64,000 nt of DNA from an uncultured Gammaproteobacteria bacterium (GCA_963759005.1 CAVWXQ010000006.1:17020-81019); one strand, 5' to 3'; numbered from the stretch's first letter, positions 4,930-53,360 are shown. Numbers and translations: made by a program. The notes: generated from the sequence alone by a model not told the origin.

Positions 4930-5060
4930 TCTGCGTTGACGTGCATGGAAGCACTTATGTCCAGGGACGGACAGTATTTCGCAAGGAGCCAGGAAGGTGG
5001 TGCGATAATGTCGTGGACGCATGGATGCGTAGGAGCGACCATCTGCGTTCATCTGTGGAT
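4930..5060. repeat. Small interspersed repeat, family R1 (GCATGGATGCG core), flanked by a 9-bp direct repeat atctgcgtt
   Basis: Related copies lie at 8318..8400, 10797..10898 (inside mtnP) and 38463..38650. The direct repeat occurs at 4930-4938 and 5041-5049. Confidence 0.6.
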
Positions 5061-5086: not shown

Positions 5087-5830
5087 TTGCGGAAAAATAT
5101 TATGAACCACGCAATATGGGCAATCGTGCCAGCTGCCGGTATTGGCAAACGTATGCAGTCTGATGTCCCCAAACAATATCTTTCGTTAAACGGACGACCT
5201 GTCCTTGAACACACAATAAATACCTTACTGAAAAACATAAATATTTCTGGTATGGTTATTGCCTTACAGCAGGATGATGTCTATTTTGCGGATATAAAAA
5301 TACATACGAATAAACCGGTATTACGTGCAGCAGGCGGCAAAGAACGTGCTGATTCTGTATTAAATGCCTTAGCAACATTATTTCAGCACAATCAATTTGA
5401 TAACAACAAAGATTGGGTAATGGTGCATGACGCGGTTCGTGCCTGTTTACAACAGCAGGATATCGATAGACTGGTAAGCGAAGTGGCTGAGGATAAAAAT
5501 GGTGGATTATTAGCTTTGCCGGTACGTGACACCATGAAAAAACAGAACATGGGCGAATCCATTGCCAGCGTTGCAAAAACCATAAAACGGGAAAACCTCT
5601 GGCATGCGCTGACACCGCAGTATTTTCACGCTGCAAGCCTGAAAAATGCGCTGGAAAAAGCCCGGTTAGATAATATGCCTATAACGGATGAGTCTTCTGC
5701 AATGGAATTTGCCGGTTTTTCTCCGAGACTGGTGCAGGGTTATGAGGATAATATTAAAATTACCCGGCCTGATGATTTACGCCTGGCCAGTTTGTTTCTC
5801 CAGTCACAGAACTGTGATTACGATAAGTAA
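5087..5830 (+). CDS. ispD: 2-C-methyl-D-erythritol 4-phosphate cytidylyltransferase
   Basis: AIVPAAGIGKRM N-terminal motif and its position upstream of ispF. Confidence 0.9.
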   Translation: MRKNIMNHAIWAIVPAAGIGKRMQSDVPKQYLSLNGRPVLEHTINTLLKNINISGMVIALQQDDVYFADIKIHTNKPVLRAAGGKERADSVLNALATLFQHNQFDNNKDWVMVHDAVRACLQQQDIDRLVSEVAEDKNGGLLALPVRDTMKKQNMGESIASVAKTIKRENLWHALTPQYFHAASLKNALEKARLDNMPITDESSAMEFAGFSPRLVQGYEDNIKITRPDDLRLASLFLQSQNCDYDK

Positions 5831-5887
5831 TGCACTGAAATCGTTCCCGACGATTTTCAGTATACACTCCATCCATGGAGATAAAGA
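5831..5887. repeat. Hairpin repeat, family R3, ending in GGAGATAAAGAATG and supplying the SD for ispF
   Basis: tgcactgaaatcgttcccgacgattttcagtatacactccatccatggagataaagaatg, with 3.6 tandem copies at 51121..51305 and a mosaic copy at 9489..9560. Confidence 0.65.
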
Positions 5888-5894
5888 ATGAGTA

Positions 5895-6413
5895 GTGGTG
5901 ATGAATAACAACAGCGACAGTCAATTACCACCATATAGAATTGGCCATGGTTATGATGTGCACCGTTTTGGCGAAGGCGATTTTATTGTTTTAGGCGGCC
6001 AGAAAATTCCACATGATCATGGTTTTATTGCGCACTCTGATGGTGATGTATTAATTCATTCGTTATGTGATGCATTATTAGGAAGCATTGCAGCGGGTGA
6101 TATCGGTCAACACTTTCCTGATACTGATGAACAATATAAAAATATTGATAGTAGTATTCTATTAGAAAAAATAAATCAGTTATTAAAACAGGATCAGTTT
6201 ATGATTGGTAATATTGACATAAGCATCGTTGCGCAAACACCGAAAATGTCACCGCATATACAATCAATGCGCCAGCATCTTGCCAATGTTTTAAACATCG
6301 CACAAACACAAATTAATATCAAAGCAACAACAACCGAAAAGTTAGGCTTTACCGGCAGGCAAGAAGGGATTGCTGTGCACAGTGTTGTAATGGTTTATAG
6401 TATTCCCACTTAA
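5895..6413 (+). CDS. ispF: 2-C-methyl-D-erythritol 2,4-cyclodiphosphate synthase
   Basis: IGHGYDVHRF and HSDGDV motifs. Confidence 0.9.
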   Translation: MVMNNNSDSQLPPYRIGHGYDVHRFGEGDFIVLGGQKIPHDHGFIAHSDGDVLIHSLCDALLGSIAAGDIGQHFPDTDEQYKNIDSSILLEKINQLLKQDQFMIGNIDISIVAQTPKMSPHIQSMRQHLANVLNIAQTQINIKATTTEKLGFTGRQEGIAVHSVVMVYSIPT

Positions 6414-6703: not shown

Positions 6704-7129
6704 ATGGTACTAACAAAAAAGAAAGTGATTAAGAAGAAGACGACGACGAAAAAGAAAACGGTAAGTAGGGCTGTAACAAAAGCAGCAGCACCAGTAAAGA
6801 CAGTTAAAGCTATAACTAACGCTTATACCAAAACACAACTATACGCACATATCGCTGAAGACACCGAATTAGCACGTAAAGATATTGCTAAAGTTTTTGA
6901 CTCACTAGGTGATGTCATCCATGGTCATATTAAAAGTCGTGGCATAGGTGAATTTAAAGTACCTGGCTTATTGAAAATTAAAGTGACTAAAAAACCTGCA
7001 ACCAAAGCCAGAAAGAATGTACCAAATCCATTCCGTCCTGGCGAGTTCATGGACGTTGCTGCGAAACCAGCACGCAAGGTTGTTAAAGTTCTGCCATTGA
7101 AAGCACTTAAAGATATGGCTGCTAGCTAA
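6704..7129 (+). CDS. HU/IHF-family DNA-binding protein with a lysine-rich histone-H1-like N-terminal tail
   Basis: N-terminal KKKVIKKKTTTKKKT... tail followed by an HU fold (GEFKVPGLLKIKVTKKPATKARKNVPNPFRPGE..). Confidence 0.7.
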   Translation: MVLTKKKVIKKKTTTKKKTVSRAVTKAAAPVKTVKAITNAYTKTQLYAHIAEDTELARKDIAKVFDSLGDVIHGHIKSRGIGEFKVPGLLKIKVTKKPATKARKNVPNPFRPGEFMDVAAKPARKVVKVLPLKALKDMAAS

Positions 7130-7155
7130 GCTAGCACAAGCTTTGTATGACTTTT

Positions 7156-7193
7156 AAAAAGCCCTGTAAGACATGTTTTACAGGGCTTTTTTA
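7156..7193 (+). terminator. Rho-independent terminator
   Basis: gccctgtaa / ttacagggc stem followed by a T6 run. Confidence 0.7.
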
Positions 7194-7205
7194 TTGACAT
7201 AACCC

Positions 7206-7621
7206 GTCAAAGCTATATTGATGGGTTCGGACCACAGTGGTAGCCGAAGATTGACCAGTCAACATCCATGGCTGTGTTACCTTTCTTGTGAAAGAGCATG
7301 GCCAATCACTGCGAGATGTGGCTCGGCACACCGCTTCGCTGTTTCTCGACAACGGCCTCCTCGGCAACAGCTCCTGCGTTGCCCTAATAAGTTACATCCG
7401 TGTAACGATGCGTTGTCCTAATAAGTTATATTCGTGGACATATACATTGCACAGTACGACCACCATGGATGGTGGAAGTGCAGATATTACATATGTCCAC
7501 GGATGGACGGTAGTAGGGTAATGCAGGAGCAATTACCGAGGAGAAAATATCTGCCCGTCAATCCATGGACGTATTGCCAACTATGCTGACAGATCTACTA
7601 AACCATCAATATAGCTTTGAC
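7206..7621. mobile_element. MITE-like element, 416 bp, with perfect 19-bp terminal inverted repeats
   Basis: gtcaaagctatattgatgg at 7206-7224 and its reverse complement ccatcaatatagctttgac at 7603-7621. The interior carries R1 and R2 repeat modules and several CCATGG-centred palindromes. Confidence 0.65.
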
Positions 7622-7632
7622 AGAGTACTACC

Positions 7633-8223
7633 ATGACAACGCAAAAATTACTTTATTTACATGGCTTTAACAGTTCGCCGCAGTCACTCAAGGCGCAACT
7701 GATTAGTCAGTACATGTCTGACAAACATTGTCTGGATCAATTAATCTGTCCGCAAATTCCTTCAGTACCAGAACAAGCAAGGTTGTTTCTTGAACAACTG
7801 GTCGAAGAAACACTGGAAAATTACCCGCTGAGTTTTGCTGGTAGCTCACTGGGTGGTTATTATGCAACATATCTTGCCGAAAAATATTCCGGATATGCTG
7901 TGCTAATTAACCCATCTGTTAAACCTTATGAAACACTAAGAGCATACCTTGGTGAAAATAAATTTTATTTTGACGAAGGATGCTGGGAATTTGATGAGTC
8001 ACATATTCAGCAACTGGAAGTTATGAAGATTGAAGAAATCACCGAACCGGAACGCTATTTGGTTTTATTACAAACAGGTGACGAGACTCTGGATTATCAC
8101 GAAGCAGAATTAAAATATAAAGATAGCCAATGTATTATTGAGCAGGGCGGAGATCATTCGTTTGTTGGTTTCGAGCGCTATCTTCAGAAAATTTTGCAGT
8201 TTAGCCGAATACCATGTGGTTAA
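7633..8223 (+). CDS. YqiA-like esterase (alpha/beta hydrolase, UPF0227)
   Basis: LLYLHGFNSSPQSLKA N-terminus and a GSSLGG nucleophile elbow. Confidence 0.75.
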   Translation: MTTQKLLYLHGFNSSPQSLKAQLISQYMSDKHCLDQLICPQIPSVPEQARLFLEQLVEETLENYPLSFAGSSLGGYYATYLAEKYSGYAVLINPSVKPYETLRAYLGENKFYFDEGCWEFDESHIQQLEVMKIEEITEPERYLVLLQTGDETLDYHEAELKYKDSQCIIEQGGDHSFVGFERYLQKILQFSRIPCG

Positions 8224-8317: not shown

Positions 8318-8400
8318 CTGTGCCCTCTGTGCGACGTGCATGGATGCACTAATGTCGCAGGTGTACGGATACACAAGAGCGACCTCTGTGGTGAGAAGCT
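8318..8400. repeat. R1-family repeat copy flanked by a ctctgtg direct repeat
   Basis: cgacgtgcatggatgcac...agagcgac with ctctgtg on both sides. Confidence 0.55.
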
Positions 8401-9488: not shown

Positions 9489-9560
9489 GTGCACTGGAAT
9501 CGTTCCTAGGCACACCGCTTCGCTGCTCCTCGCTAACTGCTCCATCCATGGAGATAAATA
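9489..9560. repeat. Mosaic repeat: R3 left half joined to the R2 module (gcacaccgcttcgctg), ending in ccatggagataaa
   Basis: Its halves match 5831..5887 and 7321..7345. Confidence 0.55.
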
Positions 9561-9627
9561 GTGAGAAACACTGCGAAATTATTTATTATTGCCATCCTGA
9601 ATAACTTCTTCAAGACATGAAAAAATT

Positions 9628-10676: not shown

Positions 10677-11537
10677 ATGAAACTGGCAATTATTGGCGGA
10701 AGCCTGTTTAACGAACCGGGTAATTTCATCAGGGTTACAGAAGAACAAATAAAAACACCCTTTGGTGAACCATCAGATATTTTCATTACTGGAACAATAA
10801 CCGCACCGCCGTCCTGGCTCCTTGCTGAATACCGTCCATCCATGGACATAACCGCACCGCCTTCCTGGCTCCTTGCTGAATACCGTCCATCCGTGGGCAT
10901 AAATGATGTTGAAGTGGTTTATTTAAACCGTCATGGTCATTCGCATCATTTAGCACCCCATCAAATTAACTACAGGGCCAACATGTTCGCCCTGAAAATA
11001 CTTGAAGTGACACATATTATTGCAGTCACGGCTGTTGGTGGCATAACTGAAAATATGCCACCGATGAAATGGGTGGTGCCCGATCAAATCATTGATTATA
11101 CCTATGGTCGTATGCAAACCTATAATGACGGCAATGAATCGGAAGTTAAACATATCGATTTTAGCTATCCATTTGATGATTTTTTACGAGATAAATTAAT
11201 TACAGCGCTGGATAAGAAGTCCTGTGCCTATGAAAAGCTGGCAACATACGGGGTAACACAGGGCCCTCGATTAGAATCCATCGCAGAAATTAAACGCATG
11301 CAGCGCGATGGCTGCGATATAGTTGGTATGACAGCCATGCCTGAAGCGGCATTAGCACGTGAACTGGAAATGAACTATGCCACACTCTCACTTGTTGTGA
11401 ACTGGGCCGCAGGTAAAGGGGGGAGTCCAGCACAGCAGGCTGAAGTCATTTCAATGGACGAAATAAAACAACGTATAGTGGATGGTAATGAAATAATTGA
11501 AAAGCTTATAAGCCACGTAGTTTCACTCCTTGGTTAG
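10677..11537 (+). CDS. mtnP: S-methyl-5'-thioadenosine phosphorylase carrying a 34-aa in-frame repeat insertion
   Basis: MtnP-like throughout (RHGHSHH, QINYRAN, GMTAMPEAALAREL). It is 286 aa against about 250 typical, and the excess is two tandem 51-bp R1 units at 10797..10898. Confidence 0.85.
   Translation: MKLAIIGGSLFNEPGNFIRVTEEQIKTPFGEPSDIFITGTITAPPSWLLAEYRPSMDITAPPSWLLAEYRPSVGINDVEVVYLNRHGHSHHLAPHQINYRANMFALKILEVTHIIAVTAVGGITENMPPMKWVVPDQIIDYTYGRMQTYNDGNESEVKHIDFSYPFDDFLRDKLITALDKKSCAYEKLATYGVTQGPRLESIAEIKRMQRDGCDIVGMTAMPEAALARELEMNYATLSLVVNWAAGKGGSPAQQAEVISMDEIKQRIVDGNEIIEKLISHVVSLLG
10797..10898. repeat. Two tandem 51-bp R1 units in frame within mtnP
   Basis: The units are near-identical. 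Their reverse complement matches the 4930..5060 copy (aaggagccaggaagg(t/c)ggtgcg). Confidence 0.75.
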
Positions 11538-11676
11538 CTGTAAATTTCGACTGTCTGTTAACACCCATTCCAGCCATTTTGACTGATATCGCTTTTCGCG
11601 ATATAAGGGGTCGGAGCCCTTTACATGTAAGCCATACAGCAGTAAAGTGTAAAAACCATGAAATAGGGGAAAACGG

Positions 11677-12375
11677 ATGCCAAGAAAACCACGATTTTAT
11701 CTACCCGGTGTGCCAGCACACATAGTGCAGCGCGGGCACAGCCGTGAACCCGTGTTTTTTGAAAGAGAAGATTACCAGGCCTATTTGGGTTGGTTGCAAG
11801 AAGCATCAGCGCGTTATAATTGTAAGGTACATGCTTATGTACTCATGACCAATCACATACATATACTTGCCACACCAGAAGATAAAAACAGCATTAGTTT
11901 AATGATGCAGTATATCGGGCGTCAGTACGTATCTTATATAAACCATACCTATGGTAGTAGTGGTTCGATATGGGAGGGTAGATATAAGTCGAATATCATC
12001 CATGATGAAACCTATTTATTGACCTGTATGCGTTATATTGAACTTAATCCGGTAAGAGCGGGTATGGTTAAATCACCTGGTGCATATCGCTGGTCCAGTT
12101 ATCAAGCGAATGCACAAGGGAAAGACAATGAAATAATAAATTTTCACCCTTTGTACAAATCATTAGGAAAAACCAAAGCACAACGCCTTGATGCTTATAA
12201 ATCATTGTTTAAGTTGCACATTGATGAAAAGCAACTAGATCTCATCCGCGCATCCTGGCAAACGGGGACGCCATTAGGTAATGACTATTTTAAACAGAAA
12301 GTTGAAGCGAAATTGAAATGCAAAGTGGGTCAAGCCAGACGTGGACGCCCTAAAAAGGGCTCTGACTCCATATAG
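11677..12375 (+). CDS. REP-associated tyrosine transposase (RAYT, IS200-like Y1 transposase)
   Basis: HIVQRGH ... MTNHIHIL (HuH motif) ... Y; 232 aa. A REP-like hairpin gatatcgcttttcgcgatat lies upstream at about 11597. Confidence 0.85.
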   Translation: MPRKPRFYLPGVPAHIVQRGHSREPVFFEREDYQAYLGWLQEASARYNCKVHAYVLMTNHIHILATPEDKNSISLMMQYIGRQYVSYINHTYGSSGSIWEGRYKSNIIHDETYLLTCMRYIELNPVRAGMVKSPGAYRWSSYQANAQGKDNEIINFHPLYKSLGKTKAQRLDAYKSLFKLHIDEKQLDLIRASWQTGTPLGNDYFKQKVEAKLKCKVGQARRGRPKKGSDSI

Positions 12376-12527
12376 CTGACCTCATATAGCTACCCCGTAT
12401 AGCTCATATAGCTGCTGATCCCATTACTGGTCGAGACTCCCAACAACGGACTGTCGTGCAGGTCAGATTGTTTAATTTTTAAATATGTTATGATTCGTGC
12501 ATCTGAAGATTATGTAAATATCTATAT

Positions 12528-34146: not shown

Positions 34147-34887
34147 TTTTTTATTTTTCCAATAAGATAAAAGCAAGAGCGATGCGCTATCGTAGGATGA
34201 ACCATTTCCACCTGGCTAAATGTACGAGTAGTTGACACCAGGTACGCACGGGGCGCTCTGCTATTCATCAAATAGTTACATGATGGATCTGGGCAGGCGT
34301 TGGCGCAGATTAATATTTAGCTCAATCATTCTGTCACAAACATCAGTTTTAAATGATTTCGAAATATTGGAACCATGTAACCTTTTCATGGTGAGCTAAT
34401 GAGTATGTTTACTATGTACAGAGTGCATCGTTTAATGTTGGCAGAACTATTCATTTATATATCTATAATTAATTCAGTCTGCCATTGAGTCTGCCATCAG
34501 CGACAGGTTTAACATGTCATGTGCGACAGGAAATGATACCTGAAATGACAGTTATATTAGAATATTATTATCCGGTTTTAATCTGGTCGTATGGCATGTA
34601 TTTTAATTATTTTTTTACAGTGTAAATAAAATCGACGGTTTTTGTCTGGCAATGGCGCGTTTACGTTAAGTAAACCTATGTCTCTTGTTAAAAAAATCGA
34701 CGGTTTTAAGTTAGAAACTAGAAGAGATATACTCTTTATTGTCATGATTTAAATAAATATAAATTGTTTTTATTTGTCCTTATTAAGGCTATTTGTTACG
34801 CTGAATTAATATGTTGTCAGAAAATTGACATTCGTCACTTTTCGGTGCTATATTTCCCGTCAATTAAGTAATGATGTTACTTAACTT

Positions 34888-35320
34888 ACCTAAATGTCAG
34901 TCGGGGTTCTTCTGGCTGTAAAAGAAATTCAAGGATTTTTAACATGGACATGGATCTATTTATCATGGATTTTTTTATCATAAATATAATTTGAGGAATT
35001 GTTTTCCTCTTATTTAATAGTACCTAAATGTCAGTCGGGGTTCTTCTGGCTGTAAAAGAAATTCAAGGATTTTTAACGTGGACATGGACATATTTAACAT
35101 GGACATGGATCTATTTATCATGGATTTTTTTATCATAAATATAATTTGAGGAATTGTTTTCCTCTTATTTAATAGTACCTAAATGTCAGTCGGGGTTCTT
35201 CTGGCTGTAAAAGAAATTCAAGGATTTTTAACATGGACATGGATATATTTAACATGGACATGGATTTATTTATCACGGATTTATAATAAACATAATTTTG
35301 AGGAATTGTTTTCCTCTATG
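34888..35320. repeat. Three tandem copies of a 134- to 155-bp AT-rich repeat inside a 1.4-kb non-coding leader
   Basis: Units start at 34888, 35022 and 35177. Each contains sub-repeats aacatggacatggat and a gaggaattgttttcctc hairpin. The second unit has a 24-bp internal duplication. Confidence 0.85.
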
Positions 35321-35399
35321 AGTATGGTTATGGCAAAAAGTTTGTGATGTTAATAAATTTTTATAAATTAACTAAAAACAATATTAATGAGGATGTGAG

Positions 35400-38300
35400 A
35401 ATGTTTATAAACACTCTGAAACAATTTCTCCGAAAAGCGACTTTTCTAACTGCTGCTGGTGCAATTATTTTTGCAACAGCAATGGTTACTTCTGTTGATG
35501 CAAGGGCCGGAGATATAGATATAGACCGCGCAAGCTGGAGCAACGACCGTGATCGACTGACAGTGCGTGGTGACAATGCACGAGATAACGATACCGTTAC
35601 TATCAGGTATGGTAAAAAAGAAGATAATGGTGTCGTGATTGGCACTACTCAGGCGGACGGTGATGGTGATTGGGAGTTTCGTATCTCTGCTATCGATCCA
35701 GTGCCGTGTGATGTAACCGCAGTAGACAGTCGCGACGACGATGATAAGGAAGTACGACGTGCACCAAGAGACTGTAGCAACGACGGTGGAGCACCACCAG
35801 CTGCGCAGTGTAACGATGGTATTGATAATGATGGCGATGGACTGACAGATTTTCCAGCTGATCCCGGATGTACGGATGTCAACGACAACGATGAGTTCAA
35901 TGCACCGCCACAACAAGATGCACAGTGTAACGATGGCCTCGATAACGATGGCGATGGCCTGACCGATTTTCCGGCTGATCCCGGATGTACGGATGTCAAC
36001 GACAACGATGAATTCAATGCACCGCCACAACAAGATGTGCAGTGTAACGATGGCATCGATAACGATAACGATGGTCTGACCGATTTTCCGGCTGATCCCG
36101 GATGTGTGGATGCTAACGACAATGATGAAATTGATCCTGTCGCGGTGAACTGTACGCCGCTTACCGGTAAATCCATTAACTCTACCAGCCAGACAGGTTG
36201 TGCAGAACAGGATGTACCCGAGGTTGCCACACTGCTAAATGGCAATTTCCGTGTATTAGCCATCAACGACCTGGGTATGCACTGTGGTGATTACGATACC
36301 CGTATCTCCAGTATCCTGCCACCATTCCAGGTACTGCTAGGCCAGGTGATCCAGCGCGGCGCTACGCCAACGTTGAACCCGGAGGGAGTGAGCCTGTCGT
36401 ACTCTGCGACTTCTAACTCGCAAGATCCTGTCCTGAATCGGATCGGAGCTATACGCGGCCTGAATGACGATGGTACCACTTACAAGACTAACTTCTGGGA
36501 TGCGGTTGCAGGCGGTGCTTATGATCCGTTCTACCCGGCCATTGTTACACCGTTGCTTAATGGACCGTTCCCGGTCATCGCGGACATCGGCCTGCCGGTA
36601 CCCAATGTGGAAGAGCTCTACATCGGTGCAGACGGTGTGGTCAACAGCGGCGACGAGACTCTCAGCGCAGTGCAGCACACCATGCCAGGGCTGAACAACC
36701 CATACTGTCCTCAACGATCCAAAGACGGTCAACGAGCACTATGGCGACAAGCCCTTCTTCGTTAACTTCCCGTTCGGTTATGTAGCTGAGAATGTGAACT
36801 GGTACGAAGGTGCAGGCGTTCCGTTAGCCGCTTATGATGATTTCGGTTATGAGAACTCCTACCCACTGGTTCGCGTTGAAGCCAAGCAGGGCAACACCAC
36901 TGTTGCCACGATTGATACCGTGCTGCCAATCTCCGGTGAGGCAAGCTGCATCAACTGTCACTCCGATCCAGCCGACGTGCAGACCAGCCGTACCAGTCAA
37001 CCAACTGATACGCTGGTTACTGCCGGACTGCCGGTGGCAGTAAGTCTGGATGATCCGGACCAGAACCTGCCTATTGACGTCAGCACCGAATATGCAGCGG
37101 ACATCAACATCCTGCGTTTGCACGATCTGAAACATGGTGCGAACTATGTGGACACCGCTGGTAGCATCAACACCGTGTGACGTTACTGCCAATGCGGGCA
37201 ACGGCGATGCCAACTGCCTGATTAACAAGGCGCTGGTGCAGGGCGAACCGGCGGTCTGTCAGACGTGTCACTACACCCCGGCGCTTGATCTTGCGCAGGT
37301 TGGTCCTGTAGCCGGTGCTGTTGGTACCGATGCCAATGGACGTAACCAGGTGGCGCATTCAAGTAACTCCAACGTAATGCACAGCCACCACGGTGGTCTT
37401 GGTAACCTGTTCCCGCCAATGCCGGCACCGATTCAGAACGGCTGATGGTACTATCACCAACCAGACCGATCGTCTGGCGGTGTTAGAAGATACCTGTTAC
37501 CAGTGTCACCCGGGCACCACCTCGCAGTGTCTGCGTGGCGCGATGTTCAACGGTGGCATGCTGTGTAACGACTGCCATGGCAGCATGGAGCAGGTCGGTG
37601 CTGACTTCTCCGCTGGTGTCTCTCCACAGAACCCGGGTGCGTTTGTGCTGGGCGGCAACTTCTATGACCCTAACGACCCGCAACCGCGTGTGCCATGGGC
37701 CAACGAGCCGGGTTGTGGTTCATGCCATACCGGTGACGTCCGCGACAACATGGCGGGTACAGCCAATACTATAGCCAATACACGTGATGTAGACGGCAAC
37801 GTCGACAATCTGCGTCTGCGCGTGGCGTACGTAGCGGATCCGAATGACCCGACGGTCAATCCGAAGGCCGCGCCTATCGTACCTACCAACAAGCGCTTTG
37901 CTGAGCCAGCCGTTCCGGCTACGTTTACTAACGCTGACGGCAGTACGTTTGCCAACCCGGGTGCGGGTAATCCGCAGCTGTACCGGGTGAGTACCGGTCA
38001 CGGTGGTGTCATGTGTGAAGGCTGTCATGGTGCAACCCATGCGGAATGGCCAAATGCCAATCCGGCATCCAACGACAATGTCACGGCAGATCAGTTCCAG
38101 GGTCACACCGGCCCTATTATCGAGTGCGGCGAGTGTCATACCGACATCAACGCTCTGGGTACTAACGGTTCTACCAACAGCCTGCAGGGACCACACGGCA
38201 TGCATGTAGTGGGTAACACAAGCTTCGCTGACGGTGGCCATCAATCAAACCTCAATCGCAATGCCTGTCGCGACTGTCATGGTCAGAACGGTGAAGGTTC

Positions 38301-38440: not shown

Positions 38441-38471
38441 GGCCTCACCGGGAAACCGGTGGGGCCTTTTT
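38441..38471 (+). terminator. Rho-independent terminator
   Basis: ggcctcaccgg-gaaa-ccggtggggcc stem followed by T5. Confidence 0.75.
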
Positions 38472-38650
38472 ATGTACAGGATGTACGGTATGCCGCGGGC
38501 GCATGGATGCGCAGGAGCGGTGAATGTACAGGATGTACGGTATGCCGCGGGCGCATGGATGCGCAGGAGCGGTGAATGTCAGGATGTACGGTATGCCGCG
38601 GGCGCATGGATGCGCAGGAGCGGTGAATGTCAGGATGTACGGTATGTCTA
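38463..38650. repeat. Roughly 3.3 tandem copies of a 57-bp R1-family unit
   Basis: caggatgtacggtatgccgcgggcgcatggatgcgcaggagcggtgaatgt(a) repeated. Confidence 0.85.
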
Positions 38651-38865
38651 AAAGAGCCATGGATGGAGGTGAGACGAATGCCAATTTATGGGAGGTATAC
38701 TCTTGCCTAAGAGTCAGAACGGCTTAAAGACAGTAATAAACGAGTGTATAGAGATATCTGGGATGCTCAATGCATTATTTTCTTTCATAAACCTAAAAAA
38801 ATCAGTTAACCCTACCGAGTTGATAAAACAGGCATAAATTCTGCTTTTTTGTCTCCCGCCTAGTT

Positions 38866-40416: not shown

Positions 40417-40957
40417 TAATTTTCTCTCTGGAGTCAGGTAGTTATAGCTTTATACTCTCTTTTAACTGATTTTTTAAGGATAAAGATATAAAAGAGCGAC
40501 TGAATGCCGCTTTTTTTGTATACCCTGTGACTAAAGAGGGGGGGCTTTTAGTCCCTTTTCTAGTCCAGCAACTTTAAGCCAGTGGTGGTTAAGTTTTTTT
40601 TAAGGTTTGGCAGTATTTTTTTCATTATAATCTTGCGTAGTATATGAAAACGATATTTTTCGCTTAGCATGCTTGGTGATCAGAAGTGCATAGGGGCATC
40701 GGGATGGATGTTTCTATGCGTTTTTTTACTTACATATAAACAGTATATTACCTGTCTGGTCCGAAAATCCTTCAGAGAAAACGCCTGACTCAACCCTGCT
40801 TTCTGCATTTGACATCCATGGATGAAGGCAATGCAGCTGGATTATAGGGACAATCCTTGCCATGCAGTCGTGTGCTTAAAAGTCAGCAAAACTCTATGGT
40901 GATTAATTAGAGTGACCTTGATCAGTTTTCATTGCATCTAATCTAATCTAATCTGGT

Positions 40958-51023: not shown

Positions 51024-51120
51024 TGCCAGCGGTAATGAATGGTGGATACCAACAAGGCTATTTGTCATCTCGATCAGCAGGATTGTTACATGGATGTAGG
51101 AAGTGCAGAAAATGCAGGAG

Positions 51121-51305
51121 CAATTTTCAGTCACTACATCCCTGGAGATGCACTGAAATTGTTCCAGACAATTTTTAGTATACACTCCATCCCTGGAGAT
51201 GCACTGAAATTGTTCCAGACAATTTTTAGTATACACTCCATCCCTGGAGATGCACTGAAATTGTTCCAGACAATTTTCAGTATACACTCCATCCCTGGAG
51301 ATAAA
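51121..51305. repeat. 3.6 tandem copies of a 51-bp R3 unit, ending in CCCTGGAGATAAAAAATG and supplying the SD for moeA
   Basis: ccctggagatgcactgaaattgttccagacaatttttagtatacactccat repeated three times. The ORFs in the track that translate the repeat are artefacts. Confidence 0.85.
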
Positions 51306-51307
51306 AA

Positions 51308-52579
51308 ATGCGAGATATAGAAATAAAAACAGTTGATTGTTGTGCTTCGCCCGGATTGATATCGGTTGAGCAGGCGCTTGAGAAGGTTCTTGCTCAGGCT
51401 TCGCCTGTCGAGCAAGTTGAGCAGGTAAATATTCTACATGCATTAAACAGGGTGCTTGCTGAGGACTTACATTCAACCATAGATGTACCGGGTTATGATA
51501 ACAGCGCGATGGACGGTTATGCTGTACGCAGTGAAGATTGTCAGACTTCTGGTTCTGACTTACCCGTGTCACAACGCATAGCTGCCGGTCAGGTTGGTAC
51601 ATTCCTTGAACCAGGCACTGCTGCACGTATTTTTACCGGGGCACCTGTACCTGAAGGTGCTGATGCAATTGTTATGCAGGAAATGTGTGAACAACATGAT
51701 GAAGCTCAGCTAGAAAAGAATCAGGGTGGCCGGGTAATTATTAATACGGTTGTTAAAGCAGGCGCTAATATTAGAAGTGCCGGTGAAGATATAGCCAGGG
51801 GGAATACCGTACTAAAAGCAGGCAAACGGTTACGTCCACAGGAGCTTGGTTTACTGGCATCTGTTGGTCTCGCTGAAATCAAGGTAAAAAGAAAATTAAA
51901 AGTTGCCACGTTTTTTACTGGTGATGAAATTATAACGCCGGGACAGGCATTAGCTGACGGACAAATTTATAATTCTAATCGCTATACACTAACCGGTTTA
52001 TTACAGGCAATGGACTGTGAGATTGTCGATTTAGGCATAGTGCCTGATACCCTGGAGGCAACGTTAGAAGTGTTGGAACAGGCTGCTTCAGGTGCTGACC
52101 TGGTGATTACCAGTGGCGGGGTTTCTGTTGGTGAAGAAGATTATGTTCGAATCGCTCTGCAGAAACTTGGCGAGTTAACAATGTGGCGTATTGCAATGAA
52201 ACCGGGAAAACCGGTAGCATTTGGTAAGGTTAAAAATGCGCTGTTTATGGGGCTGCCAGGCAACCCTGTTTCTGTCTTTGTAACTTTTTTGCTATTTGCA
52301 CGCGCCTTGATTTTGAAGCTGCAGGGCGCAGAAGATTGTCTTGTTAAACGTGTTTCTGTCATTGCTGATTTTGACTGGCCAGAAATAAAACGCCAGGAAT
52401 ATTTACGTGTTCGCCTTGTGGAAAAAGATAAGCAGACGGTTGCCCAACTATTTCCTCACCAGGGTTCTGGCGTATTAAGCTCTGCAAGTTGGGCCGATGG
52501 GCTAATAGAGGTATTTATCGGTCAGCAAATCAAACAGGGAGACAAAGTAAGTTACCTGCCATTTGAAGGTTTGTATTAA
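51308..52579 (+). CDS. moeA: Molybdopterin molybdenumtransferase
   Basis: DVPGYDNSAMDGYAVR and GGVSVGEEDY motifs. Confidence 0.9.
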   Translation: MRDIEIKTVDCCASPGLISVEQALEKVLAQASPVEQVEQVNILHALNRVLAEDLHSTIDVPGYDNSAMDGYAVRSEDCQTSGSDLPVSQRIAAGQVGTFLEPGTAARIFTGAPVPEGADAIVMQEMCEQHDEAQLEKNQGGRVIINTVVKAGANIRSAGEDIARGNTVLKAGKRLRPQELGLLASVGLAEIKVKRKLKVATFFTGDEIITPGQALADGQIYNSNRYTLTGLLQAMDCEIVDLGIVPDTLEATLEVLEQAASGADLVITSGGVSVGEEDYVRIALQKLGELTMWRIAMKPGKPVAFGKVKNALFMGLPGNPVSVFVTFLLFARALILKLQGAEDCLVKRVSVIADFDWPEIKRQEYLRVRLVEKDKQTVAQLFPHQGSGVLSSASWADGLIEVFIGQQIKQGDKVSYLPFEGLY

Positions 52580-53261: not shown

Positions 53262-53360
53262 AAAATCACTGTCCCGCTAACAAAAAGAAATTATTTAAAC
53301 AGCCTGATGTAGCAAGCTTTGATAAGGGTTGCGTTAATCCGAGACATGAACCAGACGCAG
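53262..53360. repeat. R4 repeat copy, paired with 140..245
   Basis: See the 140..245 entry. Confidence 0.6.

Follow-up and report, generated by a model that had tools for sequence, protein, structure and literature searches.

A 51-nt repeat, here termed R3, occurs once between ispD and ispF and in tandem upstream of moeA in a 64,000-nt stretch of DNA from an uncultured Gammaproteobacteria bacterium (the window, to which all coordinates refer; L-numbered loci are related or collected sequences). Judging from sequence comparisons, R3 is one subfamily of a large, cross-genus family of 51-nt repeats with two hairpins, and the covariation of their stems strongly supports that selection maintains the hairpins as folded single strands. 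R3 probably belongs to a dispersed, non-coding structured repeat, similar to repetitive extragenic palindromic (REP) sequences and bacterial interspersed mosaic elements (BIMEs) or to a very small non-autonomous mobile DNA, that is occasionally co-opted.

The R3 unit and its family

At the first locus, a single R3 unit lies straight after the ispD stop codon (TAA, 5828-5830), and positions 5831-5890 read T-GCA-CTGAAATCGT-TCCCG-ACGATTTTCAG-TATACA-CTCCA-TCCA-TGGAG-AT-AAAGAATG. At the second, 3.4 tandem copies with a period of 51 nt (51132-51302) precede the moeA-like open reading frame (ORF) and terminate in CTCCATCCCTGGAGATAAAAAATG. A 43-nt pattern for the R3 consensus matches the window four times (the single copy and the three tandem ones) and gave no match in 100 shuffles. 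Each unit is composed, in this order, of hairpin 1 (10 bp, bulged, with the loop TCCNG), the linker TATACA, hairpin 2 (CTCCA-TCCN-TGGAG) and AT. A previous sequence-only reading had described the two loci, which we confirm, and had given them a shared terminus, which does not hold because the ends differ (CCATGGAGATAAAGAATG at the first locus and CCCTGGAGATAAAAAATG at the second); the hairpin-2 loop differs as well (TCCA vs TCCC). The same reading had pointed out a compensatory double change in hairpin 1, and this is indeed present: CTGAAATCGT...ACGATTTTCAG in one locus corresponds to CTGAAATTGT...ACAATTTTTAG in the other, through the replacement of one C-G pair by T-A (CTGAAATCGT/ACGAT to CTGAAATTGT/ACAAT), and two of the three tandem units additionally show a G-C to G-T wobble. 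Tails like AAAnAGTGAAnAGTGAA trail many copies of the family. Heptamer runs, (A/T)AGTGAA or AATGAAT, flank R3-type units on one or both sides (at 5883-5900 and 9556-9565 in the window, and in the flanks of L059, L091, L026, L113 and L128), and the ATG or GTG of the heptamer is what sometimes aligns as a start codon 5 nt past GGAGAT.

The wider family follows a common plan, with a 10-bp hairpin 1 that has a 3' bulge of 1-2 nt and the loop TCCNG, a linker GCATACA or GCATTCA (consensus (G/T)CATACA), CTCCA-TCCN-TGGAG, and AT. The stems of hairpin 1 vary freely (for instance, CCGCGCCCGT/ACGGGCTTGCGG, CCGAGATTGT/ACAATCTTCGG and CAGGCAATGC/GCATTGCTACTG), the top of hairpin 2 (CA-TCCN-TG) is conserved, and the 51-nt period is identical across subfamilies that are unrelated in sequence. 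Units were found in Methylobacter, Methylophaga, Stutzerimonas, Azorhizophilus, Pseudomonas, Shewanella, Gilvimarinus and gammaproteobacterial metagenome-assembled genomes (MAGs). The scan of the genome collection for hairpin 2, with 15 specified bases, was loose and retrieved many chance matches, at least ca. 35-38 of the matches listed being real units; the scan of metagenomes used a 20-base pattern, which is more specific. In the window, we found 14 core hairpins (a CA-TCCN-TG or CA-NGGA-TG top with at least three extra pairs), when 0.14 are expected by chance, and the covariance model R1 gave at least 13 matches, on the plus strand at 5831, 51149-51302, 9490, 10802 and 10853, and on the minus strand at 4957, 7493, 8334, 38472/38524 and 40814. 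The majority of the units in the window are in gene spacers. Scans of the window and 15 loci at Rfam gathering scores returned no family, and the hairpin-2 sequence had no match in the text of 8 million papers; likewise, we found nothing relevant in the literature linking REPs with CsrA, or palindromic repeats with Methylococcales. The family is absent from Rfam 15 and was not found described in the searchable literature.

The genomic settings of the units are diverse. In pseudomonads (L016, L072, L023, L044 and L117, from Stutzerimonas, Azorhizophilus and Pseudomonas) the unit sits within a conserved repeat of ~300 nt that begins with TAGGGTCTGTTGACGTTTCG, which appears in two copies in one genome and as an inverted pair in L117. 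A Gilvimarinus genome has a unit between its 23S and 5S rRNA genes (L075, 1259-1310), and a Methylophaga MAG has another that stops 5 nt short of a tRNA gene (L021, 1077-1160).

Both predicted R3 hairpins fold in RNA folding, but a single 90-nt copy does not fold better than its shuffles (z = -0.99), so the structural case rests on covariation. In a hand-checked alignment of 22 members, 98.4% of the positions are paired, as opposed to 32-40% in slid controls, with double-sided changes in nine of the ten hairpin-1 pairs and a covariation score that none of 500 shuffles reached. For the 77 R1 matches from the window and the genome loci, 94.9% were paired (vs 32-43%), with double-sided changes in 13 of 15 stem pairs; an independent metagenome sample of 131 members yielded 94.6% (vs 30-39%) and double-sided changes in all ten hairpin-1 pairs, the covariation alignments being model-fitted. 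The very pair that had first drawn attention is C-G in 16 and T-A in seven of 23 distinct R3-type hairpins, and mismatched in none (calculated exact probability, ~4e-6), and a second R3 pair, at stem position 4, alternates between A-T and G-C (12:11) without exception. Extending the comparison to further copies, as had been proposed, therefore gave perfect covariation among the R3-type hairpins, and the ~95-98% of pairing in the three samples, vs 30-43% in the controls, bears out the claimed selection on structure. Compensatory changes have preserved the stems, and the element is therefore selected as a folded single strand.

Turnover of units and comparison with known repeats

Units are gained or lost between close relatives, as seen at the ispD-ispF junction. 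The spacer between the ispD TAA and the ispF ATG is of only 5-6 nt in the empty sites of L123, L124 and L257 (89% and 86% identical IspF), and of 70 nt, including R3 and its tail, in the window and in the 96% relative L121, indicating that R3 is here a recent insertion of ~65 nt, which split a tight and presumably coupled junction. In a 90% relative (L254-L256), the same place is occupied by another REP-like sequence, of the GTAG type (CCGTAGGAGCGGAACTTTATTCCGCG); with R3 in the window, this makes of the junction a hot spot for the insertion of repeats. An ancestral overlapping junction, TAATG, was considered and ruled out, given the 5-6-nt C-rich spacers of the empty sites in L123 and L257.

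Units also insert into each other. A type of 47-48 nt (TCGGCAAYWGCTCCTGCRTTGC-CTAMTAA-GTKACATCCRTGTMAC-GA; X-type) was found within the hairpin-1 loops of other units, almost always preceded by (Y)TCCTC, unlike R3-type units, whose left flanks are A/T-rich RTG. Nesting is a true polymorphism, because one nested unit is present in L121 and absent in the window. Units of both orientations form a mosaic in the spacer between the HU and UPF0227 genes (7100-7650 in the window, 2705-3275 in L121), and comparison of this spacer with that of L121 reveals indels of whole modules, one of them a 47-nt unit inside a hairpin loop. Units form head-to-head composites (51085-51134 with 51150 onwards; 7263-7542; L116, L013 and L063), and the combination of a reverse unit and an R3 array seen at 51085-51134 also occurs in L126, L129, L116 and L013; direct tandem arrays of period 51 are no rarer than these composites, and neither are singletons. 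Finally, two units (2 x 51 nt, or 2 x 17 codons) lie in frame within an intact MTAP-like ORF (10677-11537), where they insert 34 residues (ITAPPSWLLAEYRPSMD, ITAPPSWLLAEYRPSVG) at a place occupied by a short turn in PDB 3ozb.

REP, BIME and REPIN sequences are short palindromes mobilised by RAYT or TnpA-REP Y1 transposases (PMC3733652, PMC3116915, PMC8266576). Our units share with them a high copy number, the form of imperfect palindromes (hairpin 1 spans 26 nt), a mostly extragenic location, compensated stems and turnover between relatives, as well as their arrangement singly, in head-to-head pairs or in tandem clusters whose linkers are conserved, and a RAYT-like gene exists in the same window. 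In the metagenome sample, the spacers with units comprised 16 convergent and four divergent ones; REPs are commoner between convergent than between divergent genes. Unlike REPs, however, the units are devoid of a GTAG/CGTC tag, are bipartite, with two different hairpins and a fixed linker, and keep a strict period of 51 nt; also, their hairpin-2 module is conserved across orders, in contrast to lineage-specific REPs. A scan for GTAGGAGC-type heads did not detect any typical REP in the window.

The RAYT-like ORF (11677-12375) encodes a Y1 transposase (Pfam Y1_Tnp, 4.8e-14; NCBIfam REP_Tyr_transpos, 82 bits with a cut-off of 80). It is flanked by 21-nt inverted repeats that are unrelated to the 51-nt units (flank coordinates 11602-11622, 12354-12374 and 12362-12404), and no R1 units flank it in the window or in L042. 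This situation resembles that of TIRYT-like genes, flanked by terminal inverted repeats, and not that of a repeat-flanked RAYT (PMC3733652). The gene was considered as the mobiliser of the units, but this link is unsupported, given that inverted repeats of another kind flank it both here and in L042. Three 14-nt tandem repeats (CATATAGCT..) are located 3' of the gene, and in L252 its left neighbour is SpoVR, not the MTAP-like gene.

Other small mobile elements offer only partial parallels. The units are not MITEs (miniature transposable elements with inverted repeats), because they have neither terminal inverted repeats nor target duplication. Rickettsia palindromic elements and Coxiella MITEs are among the element types with which PMC5896051 and PMC10969869 deal, at least in part, and both can insert in frame into protein-coding genes; the presence of units in frame inside the intact MTAP-like gene is similar to this, a likeness of behaviour only, but the units are much shorter than either type, mainly intergenic and in tandem, and without terminal inverted repeats or target-site duplications. 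As for the 'peel and paste' elements of the IS200/IS605 type and miniatures derived from them, in which subterminal hairpins are recognised, X-type units follow a fixed (Y)TCC(TC) and sit in hairpin loops, which are single stranded; the X-type pattern resembles insertion on the 3' side of a short, fixed target that is not duplicated, although the conserved left flank may be the unit's own.

Taken together, these comparisons show that units move into new sites, in spacers and now and then in frame inside genes, that they multiply in tandem every 51 nt and insert into one another's hairpin loops, and that close relatives differ by their gain and loss. By analogy with the REP-RAYT and IS200/IS605 systems, the selected strand would most likely be single-stranded DNA recognised during propagation, as REPs are by Y1/HUH transposases; tolerance of the units, or a stabilising role, as RNA may add a second constraint, and the effects on neighbouring genes would be by-products of insertion.

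Several observations weigh against a REP-like mobile repeat. We found no mobilising enzyme linked to the units, the RAYT-like gene of the window being flanked otherwise; GTAG or CGTC at a fixed position are absent from alignments A2, A3 and A4; and neither terminal inverted repeats nor a target-site duplication could be defined in the comparison of filled and empty ispD-ispF sites. Different orders share the module formed by the linker and hairpin 2, a degree of conservation not usual among REPs, and this could mean that it is recognised by a conserved host factor, in a cellular function; the conservation of hairpin 2 is partly built in, because members were gathered with a hairpin-2 pattern, and the counts of covariation ignore phylogeny. 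Besides, mismatches on the TCC strand are more often G.U than A.C (55 vs 32 overall), and units that lie between co-directional genes have TCC on the sense strand in ratios of 16:6 (first sample) and 16:12 (second sample), or 32:18 in total, which hints at selection at the RNA level; assignment of the strand from the mismatch asymmetry or from orientation yielded weak, non-significant trends only.

Start codons of moeA and ispF

It had been claimed that the GGAG of the repeat serves as the ribosome-binding site (RBS) of both moeA and ispF. This is plausible for moeA, where the ATG at 51308 is the first start codon within the frame and GGAG is separated from it by 7 nt, within the 5-9 nt that we required of a Shine-Dalgarno sequence donated by the repeat. 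The MoeA N-terminus MRDIEIKTVDCCASPGLISVEQ corresponds to MKNIETKTVDCCASPGLISVEQ in homologues aligned over their full length (conserved N-terminus, MKNIETKTVDCC), and the junction ...TGGAGATAARAAATG, from GGAG to ATG, is kept in relatives with 87-95% identical MoeA (L126-L129). Likewise, in relatives with 95%, 88%, 87% and 79% identical MoeA the spacer ends in a family unit followed by ...TGGAGATAA(A/G)AAATG; in L130 the distance from GGAG to the start is of 13 nt, and L131 (80% identical MoeA) has no unit and a different sequence upstream of moeA. What precedes the junction varies from a single unit to composites or to the three tandem units of the window (compared with L126, L128, L129 and L130). 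Since relatives share the junction but differ upstream of it, the insertion before moeA is an old one, in which a dynamic array has retained its GGAG-ATG junction. From its position and conservation, the GGAG at 51297-51300 is very probably the Shine-Dalgarno (SD) sequence of moeA, co-opted when an old insertion between moaB and moeA would have placed the terminal GGAG 7 nt before the ATG. This candidate SD would be partly sequestered, because GGAG forms the 3' arm of hairpin 2 (~-4.5 to -5.7 kcal/mol; ~-5 at moeA).

At ispF, the claim fails. The ATG at 5888-5890 opens a frame of six codons (ATG AGT AGT GGT GAT GAA TAA) that is not that of ispF, and whose stop codon, TAA 5906-5908, overlaps ispF codons 2-3 (ATGAATAAC). 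The true start is the ATG at 5901, because a database protein is identical to the 170-aa product from this codon, and nearly all of the 120 best homologues (73-96% identity) are of ~170 aa and align with full coverage; Pfam YgbB is assigned to IspF in the gene calls of relatives. The downstream gene thus uses a start codon other than that proposed, and the 20 nt that separate it from GGAG (5877-5880) are too long for a normal SD, as judged from sequence. Because of this distance, and of the out-of-frame ATG, the repeat does not donate an SD to ispF; its GGAG would serve only the six-codon mini-ORF, which, speculatively, may re-couple ispF translation through the overlap of its stop codon with the ispF start.

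Neither is the donation of translation signals a general property of the family, since units lie in either orientation and only four of 113 independent clusters (~3%) have a long ORF that begins within 13 nt downstream, with true-looking gene starts in two of the four. Other cases of GGAG near a start are a 190-codon ORF in L063 and L013, whose N-terminus (...RIIGG) we take to resemble that of RsmD, and ORFs in L032, L186 and L194. It is, for these reasons, unlikely that the unit is a cis-acting mRNA element in which hairpin 2 would pair an anti-SD with an SD (CUCC:GGAG) and, together with hairpin 1, govern translation initiation or transcript stability. The GGAG-N7-ATG layout of moeA and its retention in relatives, the comparable layouts before other ORFs, the sequestration of the SD in the hairpin, the mild preference for sense orientation and the excess of G.U over A.C on the TCC strand are all in agreement with such an element; however, apart from how seldom a start codon is abutted, many units are antisense, between convergent genes, inside an ORF, in the 23S-5S spacer or beside tRNA genes, the internal tandem units have no downstream gene, and the ATG at the ispF locus is out of frame.

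Table 1. Units of the 51-nt family and associated features in the window (R1, score with the covariance model).
Feature	Position	Strand	Evidence or remarks
Family unit in the ftsB-ispD spacer, GGA-loop strand on +	4957-5009	-	R1 22.4 bits
Single 51-nt R3 unit in the ispD-ispF spacer	5832-5882	+	R1 71.6 bits, E 1e-19; absent from L123, L124, L257
Hairpin 1: CTGAAATCGT / loop TCCCG / ACGATT(T)TCAG, 10 bp, one bulged T	5835-5860	+	RNA fold, covariation
Hairpin 2: CTCCA / TCCA / TGGAG, 3' arm with GGAG 5877-5880	5867-5880	+	~-4.4 kcal/mol as RNA
A-rich heptamer-like tail AAAGAATGAGTAGTGGTG, came in with the unit	5883-5900	+	Comparison of filled and empty sites
Six-codon mini-ORF, MSSGDE*, starts 7 nt past GGAG	5888-5908	+	Sequence reading; identical in L121
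ispF, 170 aa, true start ATG 5901	5901-6413	+	Identical database protein; homologue lengths
48-nt X-type unit lying, after ..CTCC, inside another unit's hairpin-1 loop	7361-7408	+	
Family unit, opposite orientation	7493-7542	-	R1 17.9 bits
Family unit, clear CATGGATG hairpins	8334-8386	-	R1 8.7 bits, weak match
Family unit, hairpin 2 and tail (CTCCATCCATGGAGATAAATAGTGAG) as in R3, different hairpin 1	9490-9555	+	R1 17.7 bits
Two 51-nt units in frame within the MTAP-like gene	10797-10898	+	R1 26.9, 19.8 bits
About four tandem 51/52-nt units, GGA-loop strand on +	38472-38680	-	
Probable family unit	40814-40863	-	R1 15.1 bits, E 0.012
Related reverse-orientation unit (TACATGGATGTA ... CAGAAAATGCAGGAGCAATTTTCAG), head-to-head with the R3 array	51085-51134	-	R1 7.5 bits, weak
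Partial unit heading the array (degenerate hairpin 2 CTACATCCCTGGAG and AT)	51132-51149	+	R1 9.5 bits, positions 36-51 of the model
Three tandem R3 units	51150-51200, 51201-51251, 51252-51302	+	R1 66.2, 53.1, 70.1 bits
GGAG-ATAAAAA-ATG: GGAG of the last unit (51297-51300), 7 nt, moeA ATG 51308 (moeA 51308-52579)	51297-51310	+	

The window also contains other repeats, including an 84-nt direct repeat, 85% identical, whose copies are 53 kb apart (151-234 and 53269-53352), a 155-nt tandem repeat (34801-35317, 2.5 copies) upstream of the ORF 35344-36765 and, inside this ORF, an in-frame tandem repeat of 117 nt, rich in D/N/G (35792-36142, 2.8 copies). The gene at 6704-7129 codes for an HU-type DNA-binding protein (Bac_DNA_binding in the gene calls of relatives) with a lysine-rich, histone-H1-like N-terminal extension.

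The complementary strand and the significance of the family

On the complementary strand, every unit exposes GGA in its hairpin loops (CA-NGGA-UG in hairpin 2 and CNGGA in hairpin 1). The Rsm consensus is 5'-CANGGANG-3' and the consensus of CsrA from in vitro selection (SELEX) is RUACARGGAUGU (PMC6849547); hairpin 2 of this strand equals the former, CANGGANG, and is near the latter, as with GUACAGGAUGUAC at 38476-38488. The array at 38472-38680 shows on the plus strand the GGA-loop hairpins GUACAGGAUGUAC, GCGCAUGGAUGCGC and GCAGGAGCG; it is located between convergent genes, directly behind a terminator-like hairpin (38441-38472). An independent small RNA gene at the arrays was considered and rejected, as we found no promoter or terminator signals in them.

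These likenesses raise the question of whether it is the GGA strand that functions, with units acting as CsrA/RsmA sites and arrays such as that at 38472-38680 as CsrB/Rsm-like sponges, which we consider quite improbable. There is a precedent in the TwoAYGGAY RNAs, whose AYGGAY loops are proposed to bind CsrA (PMC4333381), although in our units only the hairpin-2 loop, AUGGAU, of the complementary strand fits AYGGAY; Rfam scans gave no match to TwoAYGGAY (RF01731), the R3 array being clear up to E = 10. Permissive Rfam scans of three regions retrieved only sub-threshold matches to the CsrB/Rsm clan (CL00106) that fall on the GGA strand, with scores, of 13.7 bits for RsmY and 11.3 bits for CsrB, far under the gathering scores of 57 and 71 bits. 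Contrary to what is expected of CsrB/Rsm small RNAs, the units are scattered, in either orientation, and do not constitute discrete genes with promoter and terminator; the arrays lack a promoter, and that at 38472 starts immediately after a terminator-like hairpin. Moreover, the GGA strand is the rarer one as sense (18 vs 32), the asymmetry of mismatches favours the other strand, and the variable base of the loop is not limited to purines.

Still less probable is that units are double-stranded or cruciform DNA sites for a conserved host protein, for example a nucleoid-associated one or gyrase, as proposed for BIMEs, with a 51-bp period that reflects protein or helical phasing, and now immobile. 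The exact 51-bp period in subfamilies unrelated in sequence, the module of linker and hairpin 2 conserved across orders and the occurrence in either orientation could be so explained. Nevertheless, stem covariation, tolerated G.T wobbles and a conserved bulge point to a folded single strand and not to a duplex motif, and the polymorphisms of presence and nesting point to ongoing movement; no candidate protein was found. Finally, it is hardly credible that the compensatory change reflects chance or the shared ancestry of two diverged duplicates, with the structure unselected: the window loci do differ by one double change only, and the single 90-nt copy does not fold significantly, but the 23 R3-type copies are perfect, and nine or ten of the ten stem pairs covary in three independent samples.

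With the REP-like mobile repeat as the preferred reading, a bolder version of it, which we regard as doubtful, is that of an undescribed, cross-order family of structured mobile repeats whose module, GCATACA-CTCCA-TCCN-TGGAG-AT, would be read by a conserved cellular factor. The mobile repeat may then scatter hairpins with the CsrA/Rsm consensus (CANGGAUG) and sponge-like arrays through transcriptomes. Also, the built-in SD (GGAGAT-AAAAA-RTG) and the length of 17 codons may allow a unit to land at gene starts, in operons and within genes without killing their expression.

In all, the family is abundant, is present in several gammaproteobacterial orders and has stems that covary very strongly. 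Its insertions have separated ispD and ispF, have very probably replaced the RBS of moeA and have added 34 residues to an MTAP-like enzyme, and the family will mislead gene callers as well as non-coding RNA searches. Present knowledge of REPs does not account for the fixed period of 51 nt, or 17 codons, nor for the conservation of one hairpin across orders; once the recogniser of the module is identified, whether it is CsrA, a transposase or some other factor, the way in which such repeats persist could be tested.

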